In this document: piece after piece, positions 5,386 to 36,275 of the stretch
Layout: every line of letters begins with the position of its first letter
Position numbering within the stretch: the stretch's first letter is position 1
Source of the DNA: Gammaproteobacteria bacterium
GTDB lineage: Bacteria > Pseudomonadota > Gammaproteobacteria > Pseudomonadales > Porticoccaceae
NCBI GenBank assembly: GCA_963854585.1
Contig: CAWKZU010000005.1
Location: forward strand, 13,806-77,805
Length of the DNA: 64,000 bases
Reading direction: 5' to 3'
The notes under the pieces: generated by a model
What the model saw: only the letters and a program-made list of their open reading frames with translations
What the model was told of the DNA's origin: nothing
The model's database searches: none
Translations under genes and position numbers: made by a program

Positions 5386-6387
5386 TTAGCCTAACAACAG
5401 CGCGCTGCGATCAAACAGCCAATAAGCGCTGCAGGTTCCAATGGCATAGACCGCCACATCTCTTATTGCTTGTTCTTTTTGCTTAATGGCAGGAATCTGC
5501 CTTGCGAGTAACACGATCAAAATAATACCGACAATAAATAGGATCTGACCTATTTCAACACCTATATTAAAGAACAATAGGGCCTCAAGCTTCATCGACT
5601 GCGGCAACCCTAACTCCTGAAGTACCACCGCAAACCCAAAACCATGTAACAGACCAAAACCTGAAGATACAGTCACAGGATAACGCCAAGTGAAACTATT
5701 TTGTTCACGCCCATCATGATGACGGATAATTTCAACCGCTAATAACAGAATGCTTAAGGCGATAAGTATTTCGACCAACTCGGTGCGCACTCTAAAAATA
5801 TTGAGCGTGGCAAGGCTTAGCGTAACGGAGTGGGCGAGTGTAAATCCGGTCACCGTCCAAAGTAACCGCTTAAGACCTCCCGCAATGATTATTAAGCAAA
5901 GTACAAAAAGTAGGTGGTCATAGCCCTCAAGGATATGCTCTGTACCCGCAAGCAGATACTGATGCGCGACCTCAGCAGCTGAGACATCCAGGGGCAACGC
6001 TACAATGGTGACTTCTGGTCCCGAAAAAACCTGTGCCACTTCACCTGACAGTGATTTATAGACCACCAAAGAAGTGAGGCCCGGATTGCTATTAAGGTAA
6101 TTTAGATTAATCGTAAAGGCTGGATTAGCCTGATCGCAAACATAGCGTCGACGACCCAGTAGGCCAGCCGGTTGATTTCCTGCGGACCCACCCTTTATAC
6201 GGCAACTTTCATGATCCAATTTAATACCAGGCTCTTGCCCAAAAGACATAACTGGCGGTATTTTCCACTTAAGTAAGTATTCACTTTCTGACTGCTGATT
6301 AACCTCGACATAAACGGGTCTAGCTTCATCTGCAATCACATTGCCGACGCAAATCAGAGCTAACAGAAAGAAAAGAACTCTCATCAC
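5386..6387 (-). CDS. HupE/UreJ-family (HupE_UreJ_2) membrane protein with an N-terminal exported domain
   Basis: GTEHILEGYDHLLF, FTLAHSVTL, FGLLHGFGFA, FFNIGVEIGQ His-rich TM motifs; signal-peptide-like N-terminus. Start is GTG 6387 or ATG 6384. Confidence 0.88.
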   Translation of the reverse strand: MMRVLFFLLALICVGNVIADEARPVYVEVNQQSESEYLLKWKIPPVMSFGQEPGIKLDHESCRIKGGSAGNQPAGLLGRRRYVCDQANPAFTINLNYLNSNPGLTSLVVYKSLSGEVAQVFSGPEVTIVALPLDVSAAEVAHQYLLAGTEHILEGYDHLLFVLCLIIIAGGLKRLLWTVTGFTLAHSVTLSLATLNIFRVRTELVEILIALSILLLAVEIIRHHDGREQNSFTWRYPVTVSSGFGLLHGFGFAVVLQELGLPQSMKLEALLFFNIGVEIGQILFIVGIILIVLLARQIPAIKQKEQAIRDVAVYAIGTCSAYWLFDRSALLLG

Positions 6388-7292
6388 TTGGGCTCAGTCT
6401 TATCGATAATCTGATATTTAGATATCAGCATCTCAATAGCCAACTGCTTTATCTCTCTCTGTTGTTGGCGCTGCGCGTCAGCTAGCACTGCTGCACTGAC
6501 ATCTTGGAACTCAGGAATATACATAGGGGTCTTTTTAGTTACCAAAACTAAATGCCAACCGTAGTTAGATTTAAGAGGGCCCTGCCACTTTAAAGAATCT
6601 GGCGGATTTGAAAGCACTAATGAGAACATTTCTTGTTTAAAGTTTAAACCGAAGTGGCTAGCAATCTCCTCATCATCACGATTGACGTAGTTGCGATTAT
6701 AAAGAAACCGCTCTCCGTAAAGACCTGAGTTCTCAAACGGAACTTGACCTGCATTTAGACCTTTTAGCAGCTTTAATGCTCGGGTTTCGCCTTTCTCCCA
6801 GCTTAGATCCTTGCCTGAAGCAACAAACACATGGGTAAAAGTTGCCGTGGCAACCCTTATATAATCCTCTCGATTAGTATCGTAGTATGCACGCAGATCA
6901 ACTTCAGTGAGTGGTGCTTTTTCGTCATAAAATCCCTGCGCTAAATAATCCATTTTCTGCATTAGTCTTCGACGGATGATCTGATCATCTCGTTCTAAAT
7001 TGAGGCCCAAAGCCTCTCTATACAGGACTTCACTTTGCACATAGCGCTCTATTAGACGCTGGCGTTCGGAAAGAGGGAGACCTTGGATGGCCTTTAGGGC
7101 ATCCTCTGGTTTAAATGATTTAGCCTCACGCTGCATAAATTGGGCGAGTAACTGATCATCAATAAAAATACTATATTGATCGTCGCTGTAATCTTTAGCA
7201 TTTATCAGTCGCTCGCCGCCAAGCAATACTAAACCAATAATTAGAAATTGAAATAACGGCTCTTTGAAGACCTGCCTGGAAAACAAATTCAT
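6384..7292 (-). CDS. Parvulin/PpiC-like peptidyl-prolyl isomerase domain protein with N-terminal membrane anchor
   Basis: KEPLFQFLIIG N-terminus, EVLYREALGLNL, TFTHVF, GPLKSNYGWHLV; 4-bp overlap with the HupE/UreJ gene. Confidence 0.85.
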   Translation of the reverse strand: MNLFSRQVFKEPLFQFLIIGLVLLGGERLINAKDYSDDQYSIFIDDQLLAQFMQREAKSFKPEDALKAIQGLPLSERQRLIERYVQSEVLYREALGLNLERDDQIIRRRLMQKMDYLAQGFYDEKAPLTEVDLRAYYDTNREDYIRVATATFTHVFVASGKDLSWEKGETRALKLLKGLNAGQVPFENSGLYGERFLYNRNYVNRDDEEIASHFGLNFKQEMFSLVLSNPPDSLKWQGPLKSNYGWHLVLVTKKTPMYIPEFQDVSAAVLADAQRQQQREIKQLAIEMLISKYQIIDKTEPK

Positions 7293-30190: not shown

Positions 30191-30900
30191 GCGAGGCAAC
30201 CGTAAGGGAAGTCGCCGGAAATGGTCTTTGGCATAACAACCCAGCACTCGTTCAGTTGTTAGGCCTATGTCCTCTTTTGGCGGTCAGTTCGACAGTGGCT
30301 AACGCTTTAGGCTTAGGCTTGGCCACGATGATGGTGCTTATTGGATCCAACACTATCGTGTCTTTAATCCGTAATCACGTTAATGACGCCGTTCGATTAC
30401 CTGTGTTCGTGATCATTATTGCCGCCTTTGTCACCTGCGCTGAATTACTGATGAAAGCTTACACGTATGATCTGTATCAAATACTCGGTATATTTGTACC
30501 GCTCATTGTAACCAACTGTGCTATTTTGGGCCGCGCAGAAGCGTTTGCCAGTAAAAACAATGTGGGTCTTGCTGCCCTCGATGGCGTCATGATGGGAATG
30601 GGATTTTTATTAGTGTTAGTGGCGCTAGGTGCCATTAGAGAATTGCTCGGCCAAGGTACTTTGTTTGTGGATATGCATCTATTGTTTGGACCCATTGCCC
30701 TCAACTGGCTGATCCAGCCCTTTGGCCCAAATTACAGCTTTTTAATTATTGTACTACCGCCCGGTGCATTCTTAGTTACAGGGCTTTTAATCGCACTCAA
30801 AAACGTTATCGACAATGTACTTAAAGCCCGCGCTGACAAGTCCCGCAATAAGCCCATTAAGGGAGCAAAACGAGTACGCACGACGGGTCATATTAGTTAA
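30187..30900 (+). CDS. rsxE: Rnf/Rsx subunit E
   Basis: [29 protein letters not shown]. Confidence 0.97.
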
Positions 30901-31343
30901 TAATTATCGATGTCTTTGTCAAACAGCATCTCAATGTCGCGAAAGGCTTTGAATTCTAAATAGTTGTTGCTGGGATCACGAACAAAGAGGGTCACTTGCT
31001 CGCCTTTGCGCCCTTCAAAGCGCAGATAGGGTTTGATCACAAATTCAACTGCTGCGGCTTTCAGCCTAGCGACAAATATTTCATGCTGGGACCAATCTAA
31101 AATCACGCCAAAATGAGACGCTGGCACCGCGTGTCCGTCTACTGCATTAGTCGCAGCGAAGGGGTGATCTGCTGGGTCCACCAAATGGGCGACCAGTTGG
31201 TGACCGAAGAAATCAAAGTCGATCCAGCGTTCTGACTCACGGCCTGTGGAACAGCCTATAACGTCACAATAAAAGCTCCGCGCCTGTTCAAGATCGGTAA
31301 CAGGAAAGGCAAGATGGAAACGTGGCTGGCTGACTTTACTCAT
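30897..31343 (-). CDS. VOC (glyoxalase/extradiol dioxygenase-like) family protein
   Basis: [37 protein letters not shown]. Confidence 0.88.
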
Positions 31344-31453
31344 AGTGACTTTTAAGGGCTCTTTGGATTAGGTTATCACACTTGGTCTGCCCCAAGAACG
31401 GAACCGACCAAGATGATTTTTCTTGCTGTCTTAATATATTAGTTAGTTAACTC

Positions 31454-31837
31454 TTAGGCAATACGCAACAACGCACAGATCTTATTATCCGCAGGATCGC
31501 GCAGATATGCTAGATACATATCGCCCATATCGCCGCCAGCGCGCACACCGGGGGTCTCTTCACAGGTAGTACCGCCATTGGCAACGCCTGCAGCATGCCA
31601 GGCATCGCCCTGGGCAGTATCGGTGACATTAAAACCAATAGTGCTGCCATTACCATGACAGGCTGGCTCACCGTTAATCGGCACGCTTAAGCCAAGAACA
31701 CCCGATTCAGTAAAATAAAAGCAGCGACCCTTGGGGTCTATAATACCAGGCTTAATACCTAGCTCTCCGAGAATGGCATCGTAGAATTTTTTTGACTCTT
31801 CGATATTGTTTGCACCGATCATAATGTGACTAAACAT
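31454..31837 (-). CDS. VOC family protein (second, different subfamily)
   Basis: MFSHIMIG...SKKFYDA, GNGSTIGF, YLAYLRDPADNKICA. Confidence 0.88.
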   Translation of the reverse strand: MFSHIMIGANNIEESKKFYDAILGELGIKPGIIDPKGRCFYFTESGVLGLSVPINGEPACHGNGSTIGFNVTDTAQGDAWHAAGVANGGTTCEETPGVRAGGDMGDMYLAYLRDPADNKICALLRIA

Positions 31838-31978
31838 ACTAACTCCTAGTAAAACTTCATATTAAATAACCCTAATAGGGTTGGCTTTTGATTTTGTGTC
31901 CTAACTATTAAATATAATCTCTTTTATTTCGAACGATAGCAATGAGCGAAGCTTTAAAATTCAACTGATGGATAAGAC

Positions 31979-32875
31979 TTATAGCTCTATCTGCCCTGCA
32001 CTAACCAATACACTATTACCCGCCATCCAAACTCCGGTGAGCTTCCCATTCCTCTTTTCAGTACGTCCATGGAGGACACTGGGGCGACCCATTTCAACAC
32101 CTTGAGAAATCCGCCATCTAAAATCTCCCTCGCCAGCGGAGTCATAATGAGTCAGCAGGGCAATTAGCGCACAGTTTGCACTTCCAGTAGCGGGGTCTTC
32201 AGGCACACCGTCCAAAGGAGCAAACATGCGCGCCTTGATGTCAAATTCACCGTCACTCATCACGTACAGATGAATATGGGGTGATAAACCCTGATCAGCT
32301 AACGCCCTTAGTTGCTCCAAATTTATGCTAGCTTTTTGCAAGGCGGCATGGGTATCTAATTCAACAAATAAAAACTCCAACCCAACAGAGGCCTCTTGCG
32401 GCACATGTGTGTCGATACGGATATCGGACTCATCTAGGTTTAAAATAGTTGCTATAAAAGCGGGAGACACGACCTGACCAAGCCTTAAAGACTCTGGTGC
32501 ATTCAATTCGCAACTGATATCACCCTGCTGATCACGGCTAATACTAATTGGTACCAATCCAGCAGCCTCTTCAAATACAACGTTAAGGCCACCATCGATA
32601 CAGCCAAAGGCACCCTCTTGGGCCAATGCAAAAGCTGTTCCAATATTGGGGTGGCCAGCAAAAGGAATCTCGCGTGCTGGAGTAAAAATACGCACTCGAC
32701 GGGTCTGACCGAGCCGCGGTGGAAAAACAAACGTTGTCTCCGAAAAGTTAAACTCCCGTGCGATCTGCTGCATTTGAAGGTCTGTTAATCCTTCAGCGTC
32801 AGGCAGCACTGCTAGAGGATTACCGCTGAATCGTTGGTTGGTAAATACATCGCAAGTAAAGTATCGGTAAGTCAT
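31979..32875 (-). CDS. PhzF-family isomerase
   Basis: DVFT..FSGNPLAV, FNFSETTF, RIFTP.EIPFAGHP, EDPATGSA, QGVEMGRPS. Confidence 0.93.
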   Translation of the reverse strand: MTYRYFTCDVFTNQRFSGNPLAVLPDAEGLTDLQMQQIAREFNFSETTFVFPPRLGQTRRVRIFTPAREIPFAGHPNIGTAFALAQEGAFGCIDGGLNVVFEEAAGLVPISISRDQQGDISCELNAPESLRLGQVVSPAFIATILNLDESDIRIDTHVPQEASVGLEFLFVELDTHAALQKASINLEQLRALADQGLSPHIHLYVMSDGEFDIKARMFAPLDGVPEDPATGSANCALIALLTHYDSAGEGDFRWRISQGVEMGRPSVLHGRTEKRNGKLTGVWMAGNSVLVSAGQIEL

Positions 32876-32909
32876 AGGTACAATTTTCGTCCAAGAGATG
32901 AATTAAAGA

Positions 32910-33860
32910 TCACCAAGGCAAGGCGTCTAGGTCTAGGTTGCCGCCACTCAAAATAATGGCAACTCTCTTACCGTTAAACTGCTCTGGCTGATCCATAATG
33001 GCTGCCAAAGGAACGGCCGCAGAGGGCTCTACGACGATTTTTAATCTAGTCCAGATAAGTTTCATAGCTTCTACGATACGGGCTTCTGATGCCAGTAAGA
33101 TATCGTCCACATGTTGAGTGATAATTTCAAAATTGCGTACCCCCACCGTGCCACGCAATCCGTCGGCGATGGTGTTGGGGACAAATTCCGCCAATCTGGC
33201 ACCCGACCGGAATCCTAACCAAGCATCATTCGCAGCCTCTGGTTCAGCGCCAATCACCCGAGTTACGCCTGCATGGGGAGATTGCTTAACAACAATGGCC
33301 GAGCCTCCCAATAGTCCACCACCCCCTACTGGGGTCATTAATACGTCGGCGGGCTTGTCTAGTTGCGCCAGAGTTTCCAGCGTCGCTGTTCCCTGACCAG
33401 CAATAATTAGGTCATCGTCGTAAGGGTGCACTAAACGGGCTCCCTGCTGCTCTATTAAACGTGTCACCGTCCCTTCTCGCGCAGTCATCGTCGGTTCACA
33501 GTAGACCACGGTAGCGCCATAACTAAGCACTGCATCCTTTTTCGCTTGGGGAGCATTTTCTGGCATTACGACCGTGCAAGATGCCTTACGCATTGCCGCT
33601 GCCCAAGCTAAGGCTGCGCCATGGTTACCTGAAGAATGAGTTATAACCCCATTGGCGAGGACCTCTTGAGTCATAGAAAACAACGCGTTGCAGGCACCAC
33701 GAGCCTTAAAGGCGCCTACTTTTTGCATGTTGTCTGCTTTAAAAAATAGCTCGCAAGTGAACAGCTTGTTTAACTGTGTGCTCTGCAGTATTGGAGTACA
33801 GTGAATATAAGGCTGTATGCGCTGTTGTGCCTGCTTAATGTCGTCTAGGGTTACGGTCAT
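32910..33860 (-). CDS. PLP-dependent serine racemase / Ser-Thr dehydratase family enzyme
   Basis: AFKARG (PLP Lys), THSSGNHG, GQGT, PVGGGGL, TIADG, EPSAA, LSGGN. Confidence 0.9.
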   Translation of the reverse strand: MTVTLDDIKQAQQRIQPYIHCTPILQSTQLNKLFTCELFFKADNMQKVGAFKARGACNALFSMTQEVLANGVITHSSGNHGAALAWAAAMRKASCTVVMPENAPQAKKDAVLSYGATVVYCEPTMTAREGTVTRLIEQQGARLVHPYDDDLIIAGQGTATLETLAQLDKPADVLMTPVGGGGLLGGSAIVVKQSPHAGVTRVIGAEPEAANDAWLGFRSGARLAEFVPNTIADGLRGTVGVRNFEIITQHVDDILLASEARIVEAMKLIWTRLKIVVEPSAAVPLAAIMDQPEQFNGKRVAIILSGGNLDLDALPW

Positions 33861-33966
33861 AGAGCAATTACTTTAATGAAATTACGTTGGCTATAGCATA
33901 ACCTAAAATAGACTTTTGATGAGCGATTTAACCTCTGTTTTAGTTTAAACAGAAGGAAATCTGGTC

Positions 33967-34012
33967 AAGAGTTCCGATCAAGTAACCACCTGATTACTTG
34001 ATCGGGATTTTT
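33967..34012. terminator. Long stem-loop in the argG downstream intergenic region
   Basis: ccgatcaagtaa/ttacttgatcgg perfect 12-bp stem, extendable with G-U pairs on the plus strand; ends in ttttt. Confidence 0.55.
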
Positions 34013-34078
34013 AACAATTTAGACACTCATGGATTCGAAATCACATTTCCTCAGATAGATGTTCAGCTTTAGAAATAG

Positions 34079-35293
34079 TTATATTTTTCGTCCAGCATTC
34101 GCGGCAATACGCAAGCGCAGCGCATTAAGCTTAATAAAGCCTTCCGCGTCTGATTGGTTGTACGCTCCACCGTCATCGTCAAAGGTCGCTATATTGGCGT
34201 CAAACAAACTGTCGTTAGACTGTCTGCCCACCACACTCACATTACCCTTATAAAGCTTAATGCGTACTTCACCGTTAACCACATCCTGGCTTTGATCGAT
34301 CGCGGTCTGTAGCATCAGTCGCTCCGGAGCCCACCAATAACCGTTATAAATAAGCTTGGCGTAACGTGGCATTAACTCATCTTTAAGATGTGCCACTTCA
34401 CGATCCAGTGTCAGTGACTCGATGGCACGGTGAGCCTTCATCATCACCGTGCCGGCAGGCGTTTCATAACACCCACGAGACTTCATGCCCACATAGCGAT
34501 TCTCAACAATATCCAAACGACCAATACCATTAGCACCAGCAACAGCATTCAGGTGCTCAATGACAGTGGCTGGCGACATCAAGGTGCCGTCAATGGCAGC
34601 AATGTCGCCTTTTTCATAGGTAATCGTCATGTAAGTTGGCTTGTCGGGTGCTTGCTCAGGAGACACTGTCCAACGCCACATATCATCTTCGGCCTCAGAC
34701 CAAGGGTCCTCGAGATTACCGCCTTCATAAGAAATGTGCAGTAAATTGGCATCCATAGAAAAAGGTGACTTTTTACCACGCTTCATTTCCACTGGAATGT
34801 TGTGGGTTTCACAGTATTCCATAAGCTTGTCGCGGGAATTAAGATCCCATTCACGCCAAGGTGCAATCACGTTGATGCCGGGCTTCAATGCATAAGCGCC
34901 CAATTCGAAACGAACCTGATCATTACCTTTACCTGTGGCCCCGTGTGAAATAGCTTCGGCGCCGGTTTCATTGGCAATTTCGATCAATCTCTTGGCAATC
35001 AATGGGCGAGCAATAGAGGTGCCAAGCAGGTACTCGCCTTCATAGATAGCATTGGCTCTAAACATAGGGAATACGAAATCGCGCGCGTACTCTTCACGAA
35101 GATCATCGATATAAATTTCTTTAACCCCAAGAGCTTCAGCTTTTGCCCGAGCAGGCTCTACTTCTTCACCCTGACCAATGTCGGCGGTAAAGGTGACTAC
35201 TTCGCATTGGTACTCTTCTTGAAGCCACTTAACGATAACCGAGGTATCTAAACCTCCTGAATAAGCGAGAACAACTTTATTAACTGATGACAC
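34079..35293 (-). CDS. argG: Argininosuccinate synthase
   Basis: [31 protein letters not shown]. Confidence 0.99.
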
Positions 35294-35362: not shown

Positions 35363-36136
35363 CTAATTTAAAGCATACAGTCGAGTAATCGCTGTTCGTT
35401 CTTGAGGGTCAAAAAGCCTATAACCCTGGATGGAAAAATGGTTTAACTCGGCCGTCGTAGGAAAAGTAAAGTAACGGGGAGTTCCCTGCTGAGTAAAAGC
35501 CTCTAGCGCCTGCAAATCTGACAGAAACCTGACTGCATTTATGATCTGCCTAATACCACCACTATAGAGCGATAGAACATTAAATAAATAGGATGATTTC
35601 CTCTGTAAGGGAATGGTTTTCACCGAAATAATATCGCCTGTATCAATACCTGAGTCTTGAATAAAATGCAGGGTCGAACCTATATTGCTATCACCATTGA
35701 GCATAGCCCTTAAAGTTGCCATAACCCCACGATAGCTAGGTAACACGCCAGAATGTAAATTAATTACACCATACCGAGGGATATCAATAATATCCTGCCC
35801 TATAATCAAACCAAATCGCACCGAGATGATTAAATCTGGCCAGGTGGCTTTAATACGTTCGAGACCCGCACTACCATTAACCTTATTGTCGATATCAACA
35901 AAACCCTGCAATGAACCGCCCGTCTTTACGGCTAACTGCTCAAAGCTAGGTCTTCCGTCTTGTAATAGTTCTAGTTCATAGCTCTGCAAAGCCATCAATG
36001 GAGACGGCAAAAGATAATCTGATCCCACCTTTTCAGAGATAAAAATTGATATTTCATGGTCGGCAAGTTGCCGAACTAGATGGCTGAGCGCCAGATGACT
36101 GGGTAAATCTCTGTTTGTTAGCAAGGTAATACGCAT
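35363..36136 (-). CDS. Stand-alone formyltransferase (Formyl_trans_N domain)
   Basis: ISVRFG, INLHSGVLPSYRGVMA, TLH..DSGIDTGDI. ATG 36136 preferred over TTG 36151. Confidence 0.85.
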   Translation of the reverse strand: MRITLLTNRDLPSHLALSHLVRQLADHEISIFISEKVGSDYLLPSPLMALQSYELELLQDGRPSFEQLAVKTGGSLQGFVDIDNKVNGSAGLERIKATWPDLIISVRFGLIIGQDIIDIPRYGVINLHSGVLPSYRGVMATLRAMLNGDSNIGSTLHFIQDSGIDTGDIISVKTIPLQRKSSYLFNVLSLYSGGIRQIINAVRFLSDLQALEAFTQQGTPRYFTFPTTAELNHFSIQGYRLFDPQERTAITRLYALN

Positions 36137-36275
36137 AGCAACTCTCGACAATGGGACCTAAAATTCACCTCAAACTCATGTTATTTTGATTCAGTATGCC
36201 GTTCTTTGCCACAAAAACTATTATGCAGCCACGGTTTGCGGTAGCATTCACCCCATAACAGCGGAACCATCTTTC

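Follow-up and report, generated by a model that had tools for sequence, protein, structure and literature searches.

A serine racemase homologue of marine Porticoccaceae and what its THSSGNHG motif says about function

Introduction

Does a eukaryote-type serine racemase (SerR) signature make a bacterial protein a racemase? The question is raised by P0001, a protein encoded in a 64,000-nucleotide stretch of DNA (the window) from a SAR92/Porticoccaceae MAG. A first-pass annotation of the window took the motif THSSGNHG as the sign of a racemase that makes or consumes D-serine or D-aspartate, probably mislabelled as a threonine dehydratase and relevant to marine D-amino-acid cycling.

Bacterial homologues of eukaryotic SerR, one of them marine, are already described (Kubota 2016, as cited in a later paper; Uda et al. 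2025). Since they were described in 2016 and surveyed functionally in 2025, P0001 adds to a known enzyme type and belongs to the same family as the proteins of those studies. More than 5000 SerR homologues occur in bacteria, across 31 phyla, with dehydratase or racemase activities, and activity shows little correlation with position in the tree (PMC11850409). Here, the sequence, predicted structure, phylogeny and genomic context of P0001 were analyzed.

Results

P0001 is a full-length member of the SerR homologue family

The P0001 gene is intact, and its product has PALP as the sole Pfam domain (residues 16 to 306, E 1.3e-73). Because the Pfam search shows PALP alone, with no C-terminal ACT or other regulatory domain, the earlier statement that P0001 lacks an ACT domain holds. 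The four motifs reported before, THSSGNHG, VVYCEP, AEPEAAND and TIADG, are all present, the first exactly where it had been placed (Table 1). They are not chance resemblances, since the match to the family is full length and THSSGNHGAA is kept in 36 of 36 Porticoccaceae orthologues examined.

In a PDB sequence search, the top match was the Dictyostelium SerR (6lut, 318 bits), followed by human (3l6b, 245 bits), maize (5cvc, 244 bits) and S. pombe SerR (1v71, 234 bits). The Thermus "threonine deaminase" 1ve5 (221 bits), the Scapharca aspartate racemase 5ybw (202 bits), TdcB (2gn0, 168 bits) and several IlvA entries (about 133 bits) scored lower. An AlphaFold2 model was built from a 47-sequence alignment (pLDDT 95.2, pTM 0.93) and searched with Foldseek, which also ranked 6lut first (49% identity, TM 0.91-0.93), then human, rat, maize and S. 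pombe SerR. TdcB superposes on the model equally well (TM 0.93), and the fold is therefore no discriminator of function. The best matches in sequence and structure are SerRs and not IlvA, TdcB or CysK, as the earlier assignment to a eukaryote-type family had proposed. By sequence and predicted structure, then, P0001 is a fold-type II pyridoxal phosphate (PLP) enzyme of the SerR homologue family.

Table 1. Features of the P0001 gene, its predicted active site and its neighbours in the window
Feature	Position	Strand	Comment and basis
P0001, fold-type II PLP enzyme of the SerR homologue family (predicted)	32910..33860	-	316 aa, ATG start; ORF, Pfam, PDB, AF2, Foldseek
F51-K52, predicted PLP-stacking Phe and Schiff-base/si-face Lys	33705..33710	-	human F55/K56; alignment, invariant
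THSSGNHG, aa 74-81	33618..33641	-	S77 aligns with re-face Ser (human S84), N79 with human N86
S77 codon	33630-33632	-	inside THSSGNHG
A82, position of human Q89 (couples ATP site to active site)	33615..33617	-	alignment; clade motif HGAA
K107	33540..33542	-	human K114; invariant in 47-sequence alignment
VVYCEP, aa 118-123	33492-33509	-
R128	33477..33479	-	human R135; human SerR alignment, nearly invariant
H145-P146-Y147-D148, predicted substrate-specificity loop	33417..33428	-	human HPNQ 152-155; Uda positions 146-148 + 150
G179-G182, predicted tetraglycine loop for PLP phosphate	33315..33326	-	invariant
AEPEAAND, aa 205-212	33225-33248	-
E206..A210..D212, predicted divalent-cation site	33225..33245	-	human E210, A214 carbonyl, D216; alignment
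TIADG, aa 230-234	33159-33173	-
S305-G-G-N308	32937..32948	-	S305 predicted to H-bond pyridine N (human S313), N308 aligns with human N316; alignment
PhzF-family isomerase gene	31979..32875	-	34 nt downstream of P0001 gene; PF02567, TIGR00654
VOC2, VOC/glyoxalase fold	31454-31837	-	PF00903
VOC1, VOC/glyoxalase fold	30897-31343	-	PF00903
argG (argininosuccinate synthase)	34079..35293	-	upstream of P0001 gene; Pfam

The predicted active site matches that of SerRs except at the ATP-coupling position

The catalytic, PLP-binding and metal-binding residues of P0001 are invariant or nearly so in 47 diverse homologues; E206 is invariant and D212 nearly so. As shown by alignment and modelling, PLP would be held by K52 as Schiff base, by F51, by G179-G182 and by S305. 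A divalent cation would be bound by E206, the A210 carbonyl and D212. The substrate C-alpha would be flanked by K52 on the si face and by S77, backed by K107, on the re face, and R128 would be placed for binding a negatively charged beta-substituent. The roles of these residues were taken from work on SerR in which human K114 is proposed to tune the re-face Ser via a bound water and R135 orients beta-substituents with a negative charge, as in L-threo-3-hydroxyaspartate (PMC6424897). Thus, P0001 has the si-face Lys as well as the re-face Ser and E..A.D cation site noticed earlier.

The Dictyostelium enzyme is 49% identical to P0001 over the full length, and the two have the THSSGNHG motif, the PLP-binding Lys, a tetraglycine loop, an E/D metal site and an equivalent of Arg135 in common. 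However, it reads HGQA after the motif where P0001 reads HGAA (Ala, not Gln), and it is a measured bifunctional racemase/dehydratase (PMC5928759), whereas P0001 is known from sequence. The human and rat SerRs (3l6b, 3l6c and 6zsp) are more distant (41% identity, TM about 0.93), with human K56, S84, K114, R135, E210/D216, F55, S313 and G185-188 all matched in P0001. In contrast, two of the five ATP-coupling residues differ, T52 being replaced by Val and Q89 by Ala.

In full, the human network T52/N86/Q89/E283/N316 corresponds to V48, N79, A82, E278 and N308, and the Ala at the Gln89 position runs throughout the P0001 clade. The Gln89 that characterizes the network of nucleotide-regulated SerRs of the mammalian or yeast type is thus missing. 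In human SerR, the substitutions Q89A and Q89M almost abolished ATP allostery, and where Ala or Met occurs naturally at this position, the enzyme is not regulated by nucleotides (PMC5998037). Because the Gln89 position is Ala, ATP control as in mammalian SerR is not expected for P0001, and the earlier expectation of an Mg-ATP effect is weakened.

THSSGNHG is shared with hydroxyaspartate dehydratases

For comparison, relatives were labelled through curated NCBIfam cut-offs and gene context. True BhcB proteins read (A/C)THSSGNH(A/G), followed by HPYN in the loop. At one such locus (L083), bhcB lies between genes for BhcA (729 bits) and BhcC (746 bits), and because bhcA and bhcC flank it, the BhcB label is genuine. 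The L-threo-3-hydroxyaspartate ammonia-lyases (NF005454, 564-599 bits) read FSSGNHAQA, in agreement with the earlier remark that threo-3-hydroxyaspartate lyases carry SSGNH. The companion remark, that IlvA-type dehydratases have SAGNH, also stands: the IlvA of the source genome, a separate protein of 504 aa encoded elsewhere (L002), reads ASAGNH.

These dehydratases also resemble the eukaryotic SerRs over their length. True BhcB scores 318, 303 and 293 bits against the 6lut, maize and human SerRs, compared with 318, 244 and 245 bits for P0001; by bit score, BhcB is closer to the plant and human enzymes than P0001 is. A bacterial L-threo lyase reaches 548 bits against the S. pombe "serine racemase" 1v71, close relatives of which are taken in by the NF005454 family. 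Moreover, L-THA dehydratases conserve both Ser84 and Arg135 (PMC6424897). Because BhcB and the L-threo lyases carry THSSGNH or SSGNH and resemble SerRs, THSSGNHG marks the whole SerR/hydroxyaspartate-dehydratase subfamily and does not distinguish racemases from dehydratases. The step from motif to racemase in the first-pass annotation therefore fails, THSSGNH being present in a genuine BhcB (L083) and SSGNH in L-threo lyases. We infer that BhcB keeps the re-face Ser for a substrate that is D-configured at C-alpha, from which the proton leaves on the re face; the D-configuration was deduced from the name of BhcC, 3-hydroxy-D-aspartate aldolase.

P0001 falls in a Porticoccaceae clade apart from the curated families

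A maximum likelihood tree of 98 sequences was computed with IQ-TREE (LG+C20 PMSF, quick search, SH-aLRT support only) and rooted on the IlvA of the source genome. It contains neither named eukaryotic SerRs nor assayed bacterial sequences, and the PDB bit scores stand in for the placement of the former. P0001 lies inside a clade of Porticoccaceae proteins only (SH-aLRT 99). Four clades and two long branches make up an unresolved group (SH-aLRT 96): the P0001 clade, BhcB (100), a clade from Microbulbifer (100) and a further gammaproteobacterial one (100). The L-threo lyases form their own clade (100) outside this group. P0001 is 47-50% identical to BhcB, 49-52% to the Microbulbifer proteins and 41-42% to the L-threo lyases. 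On this evidence, the P0001 clade is confined to Porticoccaceae (SAR92), has no curated name and stands apart from both BhcB and the L-threo lyases.

The differences from the two curated families can also be read in short motifs. BhcB (NF045641) shares THSSGNH, the HPY loop and the SH-aLRT 96 group with P0001, but it reads HPYN, GLKVPLK and GGGGM where P0001 reads HPYD, GLRGTVG and GGGGL. Of 401 Pseudomonadota genomes, 16 scored 567-618 bits with the NF045641 model and the rest, after a gap, 310-422 bits. Like P0001, the L-threo lyases belong to the SerR/hydroxyaspartate-dehydratase subfamily and have SSGNH, an equivalent of Arg135 and the metal site; however, they have PPY/PPF in the loop and Gln89 (NHAQA) where P0001 has HPY and Ala. 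Membership of P0001 in NF005454 was rejected (323 bits versus a cut-off of 452, separate clade).

Full-length matches to the clade among the 1.8 billion cluster representatives of a sequence library did not exceed 50% identity, and the family as a whole was large (2304 representatives at E <= 1e-30). Those nearest to P0001 at the 50% clustering level were almost all metagenomic proteins without a name, the exception being a fungal protein (50% identity); what few names there were proved generic. Orthologues of P0001 are common in marine metagenomes, and loci near-identical to its own come from marine MAGs. An intact orthologue is present in the cultured SAR92 strain H231 (locus L029), and the HTCC2207 locus shows an apparent frameshift. 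As had been suspected, public sources label the orthologues "threonine dehydratase" (JGI) or "pyridoxal-phosphate dependent enzyme". When 61 Porticoccaceae genomes were sampled, 10 had a homologue at the chosen threshold. Nine of them, from three genera, carried a gene of the P0001 clade, and the homologue in the tenth (G044) was of the L-threo type. Base composition is unremarkable and does not point to recent transfer.

The specificity loop is of the serine type

According to Uda et al. 2025 (PMC11850409), substrate choice in the SerR family is controlled by loop positions 146-148 (HPN in mouse). There, H/P-P-F/Y/N is common to SerRs and dehydratases and was called "a typical SerR sequence". 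The aspartate racemases of the family known so far all carry Ser at position 147, at 148 or at both, and in its arginine racemases the patterns are SS, D-S/P-C/S-S or insertions (PMC11850409). The loop of P0001, H145-P146-Y147 followed by D148, is of the serine type (H/P-P-F/Y/N, then D/E/Q). Because of this HPY-D loop, aspartate or arginine racemase activity is unlikely for P0001, and the D-aspartate option of the first-pass annotation is disfavoured. The loop does not decide in favour of a racemase either: of eight assayed bacterial homologues with the typical loop, six were L-serine dehydratases without racemase activity and two were weak or slow SerRs (PMC11850409). Overall, the sequence features considered here do not set racemases apart from dehydratases in this family.

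The genomic neighbourhood reflects gene order

The P0001 gene belongs to a minus-strand run consisting of argG, a 218-nt gap, the P0001 gene, a 34-nt gap, the PhzF gene, VOC2 and VOC1, which abuts the end of the plus-strand rnf operon. No operon-defining promoter or terminator rose above the shuffled background at the locus, and neither VOC protein had an NCBIfam match. The context was compared across 29 Porticoccaceae loci that were chosen for having a P0001-type gene, so that the argG-rnfE slot always holds one. In these, argG is directly upstream at 14 loci (gaps of 8-288 nt), VOC1 is the commonest neighbour (24 loci), VOC2 occurs at 12, and at least ten other gene clusters vary within the slot. 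PhzF is found at 8 of the 29 loci, which come from a public collection, and in three g19 genomes; it is absent beside homologues of other clades.

The association with VOC1 is loose at the genome level. Of the 61 Porticoccaceae genomes, 11 have VOC1 and 7 have both VOC1 and a P0001-clade gene; VOC1 occurs without the clade gene in G030, G010, G016 and G044, and the clade gene without VOC1 in G014 and G029. Outside the family, seven Microbulbifer loci keep ampD-ampE-[gene]-PEBP-AmpG-like MFS around the homologue, and a Pirellulaceae homologue has a murB-like gene nearby. A functional cassette of P0001 with PhzF and the VOC genes was rejected, the neighbours being variable and absent outside Porticoccaceae. 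In our reading, P0001 lies in a variable slot where gene order has been inherited, and its context does not represent a pathway. In some genomes where the gene directly follows argG, it might be co-expressed with this aspartate-consuming gene.

Discussion

The best explanation for P0001, to which we give about an even chance, is a dehydratase that acts on serine or 3-hydroxyaspartate by beta-elimination and may racemise as a side activity. P0001 would act in the cytoplasm, where transaldimination and C-alpha deprotonation would be followed mainly by expulsion of the beta-hydroxyl group. L-serine, and possibly D-serine, would be converted to pyruvate and NH3, and 3-hydroxyaspartate isomers to oxaloacetate and NH3; serine racemisation would be a side reaction at most. 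The enzyme would act alone, outside the beta-hydroxyaspartate cycle.

Beta-elimination is preferred as the main reaction for three reasons. The nearest curated bacterial relatives are dehydratases, the two nearest families, BhcB (408 bits) and L-threo-3-hydroxyaspartate ammonia-lyase (323 bits), both acting on hydroxyaspartate. Most assayed bacterial homologues with the typical loop are dehydratases as well. Finally, elimination outweighs racemisation about 4-fold even in human SerR, whose preference for L-THA over L-Ser is about 93:1 (PMC6424897). A counter-point is that the nearest solved structure, Dictyostelium SerR, is that of a true racemase, with a kcat of 1.5/s as racemase versus 0.97/s as dehydrase (PMC5928759). 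The source genome has no Fe-S L-serine dehydratase (PF03313). Nevertheless, a role of P0001 as a stand-in for SdaA was rejected, as the Fe-S dehydratase and the P0001 gene are not complementary in the 61 Porticoccaceae genomes: several have both and most have neither. No gene for a 3-hydroxyaspartate source was found near P0001.

A dedicated serine racemase is possible, though we hold it doubtful. Here, L- and D-serine would be interconverted by exchange of the C-alpha proton, with K52 acting on one face and S77 on the other, and P0001 would feed or drain the D-serine pool of a marine heterotroph. The presence of both bases, K107 and the metal site fits this reading, as do the top PDB matches, all of them SerRs and led by the Dictyostelium enzyme, and the typical loop. 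In addition, bacterial SerRs without dehydratase activity are known (PMC11850409), and a homologue from the marine bacterium Roseobacter litoralis was reported as a SerR (Kubota 2016, via a citing paper). However, BhcB and homologues with dehydratase activity only have these residues and this loop as well, and the assayed bacterial SerRs are very slow (kcat 0.08-0.28/s, Km 5-34 mM; PMC11850409). No D-amino-acid gene lies near P0001, and no D-amino-acid dehydrogenase (DadA) passed the cut-off in the source genome; with no partner gene found, the D-amino-acid role proposed at first loses ground.

That P0001 is a catabolic threonine/serine dehydratase like TdcB or IlvA is improbable, although JGI calls orthologues "threonine dehydratase" and the fold is indistinguishable from that of TdcB. 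P0001 scores 232 bits with the TdcB model (cut-off 453) and 182-254 with the IlvA models (cut-offs 378-577), it has SSGNH and not SAGNH, and it is 33-35% identical to the IlvA of its own genome versus 49% to Dictyostelium SerR. PALP is its only domain, and the C-terminal ACT-like domains of IlvA are absent. These results place it outside IlvA and TdcB.

Racemisation of a different amino acid (Asp, Asn, Arg, Lys or His), which several bacterial SerR homologues carry out, is also quite improbable. Substrate switches have been repeated in the SerR family (PMC11850409), and in about half of the loci the gene comes right after argG, whose product uses aspartate and makes an arginine precursor. However, HPY-D has neither the Ser of aspartate racemases nor the arginine racemase patterns, and the argG link is a gene order conserved in one family and absent in other clades.

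The reading of P0001 as BhcB of the beta-hydroxyaspartate cycle for glycolate/glyoxylate assimilation is hardly tenable: BhcB is the best NCBIfam model for P0001 and its clade is near in the tree, but the score of 408 bits is far from the cut-off of 550, the monophyletic BhcB clade excludes P0001 and the Porticoccaceae clade, and the bhcA and bhcC genes that lie beside a true bhcB have no match in the source genome (2.34 Mb, 93.6% complete), where a BhcD-like match reached 93 bits only.

A beta-eliminating dehydratase remains our preferred explanation. Only tentatively can the Porticoccaceae (SAR92) clade be proposed as a functionally new branch of the SerR family. It might consist of true racemases that produce or recover D-serine in a coastal heterotroph lineage ranking among the most abundant, or of stand-alone D-/L-3-hydroxyaspartate dehydratases outside the beta-hydroxyaspartate cycle, acting, for example, on hydroxyaspartate from marine siderophores. 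The name "threonine dehydratase" that public sources give to members of this clade lacks support. THSSGNHG should not serve to call racemases, as it is common to bona fide hydroxyaspartate dehydratases. Twenty other bacterial homologues have already been screened for activity, and the Porticoccaceae clade is a reasonable, not an urgent, target. If P0001 were a racemase, SAR92, a dominant bloom-associated marine group, would gain a route into the D-serine pool and into marine D-amino-acid cycling.

Gene content around the enzyme in Porticoccaceae

In Porticoccaceae, gene content varies in a hot spot that extends from argG, the upstream neighbor of the enzyme gene, to the end of the rnf operon, as observed across window positions 30897-34079 and loci L017-L043, L065, and L068. 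More than 10 distinct gene clusters, present at some loci and absent from others, occur in this interval; they include the PhzF gene, the pair of VOC genes, and a number of ORFs of 280 to 550 aa that carry no annotation. On the other side of argG, the 262-aa protein was compared with Fmt, PurN, PurU, and ArnA. The scores were at most 73 bits, well under the respective cutoffs, and the protein was therefore classed only as formyltransferase-like.

Two orthologues of the enzyme within the family are broken. In the cultured SAR92 isolate HTCC2207, the frame is lost past approximately residue 108, and the remainder is encoded in a different frame (ORF 6374-6958). In one MAG copy (L044), the break lies past approximately residue 224. 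These may be genuine pseudogenes or sequencing errors.

In the genome carrying the enzyme (G000, 93.6% complete), the Fe-S L-serine dehydratase (PF03313) was not found, and no DadA-type D-amino-acid dehydrogenase scored above the cutoff. The Fe-S serine dehydratase is rare throughout Porticoccaceae (10/61 genomes).

Features located in the window and in homologue loci
Feature	Location	Strand	Remarks
262-aa formyltransferase-like protein	window 35363-36151	-	partial Formyl_trans_N domain only; upstream of argG
Orthologue, marine gamma proteobacterium HTCC2207 (CH672400.1)	L059:6001-6958		reading frame lost
MAG orthologue copy	L044:6001-6944		reading frame broken
Microbulbifer example neighborhood	L045:4285-9060		ampD (amidase_2), ampE, SerR-like gene, PEBP-family gene, AmpG-like MFS permease

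Other homologues of the enzyme

Some distant homologues are much longer. Those of Sphaerisporangium (L070, L072, and L073) are ORFs of 639 to 701 aa with a C-terminal PALP domain, and those of the P0123 cluster are 412 to 416 aa long, extended at the N-terminus by about 100 aa. A member named as a MerR regulator is also in the P0123 cluster. Both groups may represent fusions or, given the high GC content of the DNA, ORFs that were called too long.

The S. pombe "serine racemase" (PDB 1v71) scored 548 bits against L107, a gammaproteobacterial member of the L-threo-3-hydroxyaspartate ammonia-lyase model NF005454, and is far nearer to this lyase than any other eukaryotic SerR. Thus, the fission-yeast enzyme appears to be nearly orthologous to the bacterial lyases, a closeness that would reflect either transfer or a naming conflict.

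In the Microbulbifer sister clade of the enzyme, the surroundings were related to peptidoglycan recycling in all seven loci (among L045-L053), where the SerR-like gene is accompanied by ampD, ampE, a PEBP-family gene, and an AmpG-like MFS permease gene, and a Pirellulaceae homologue has a murB-like gene close by. These surroundings hint that, in these clades, the SerR-like gene is tied to cell-wall D-amino acids.
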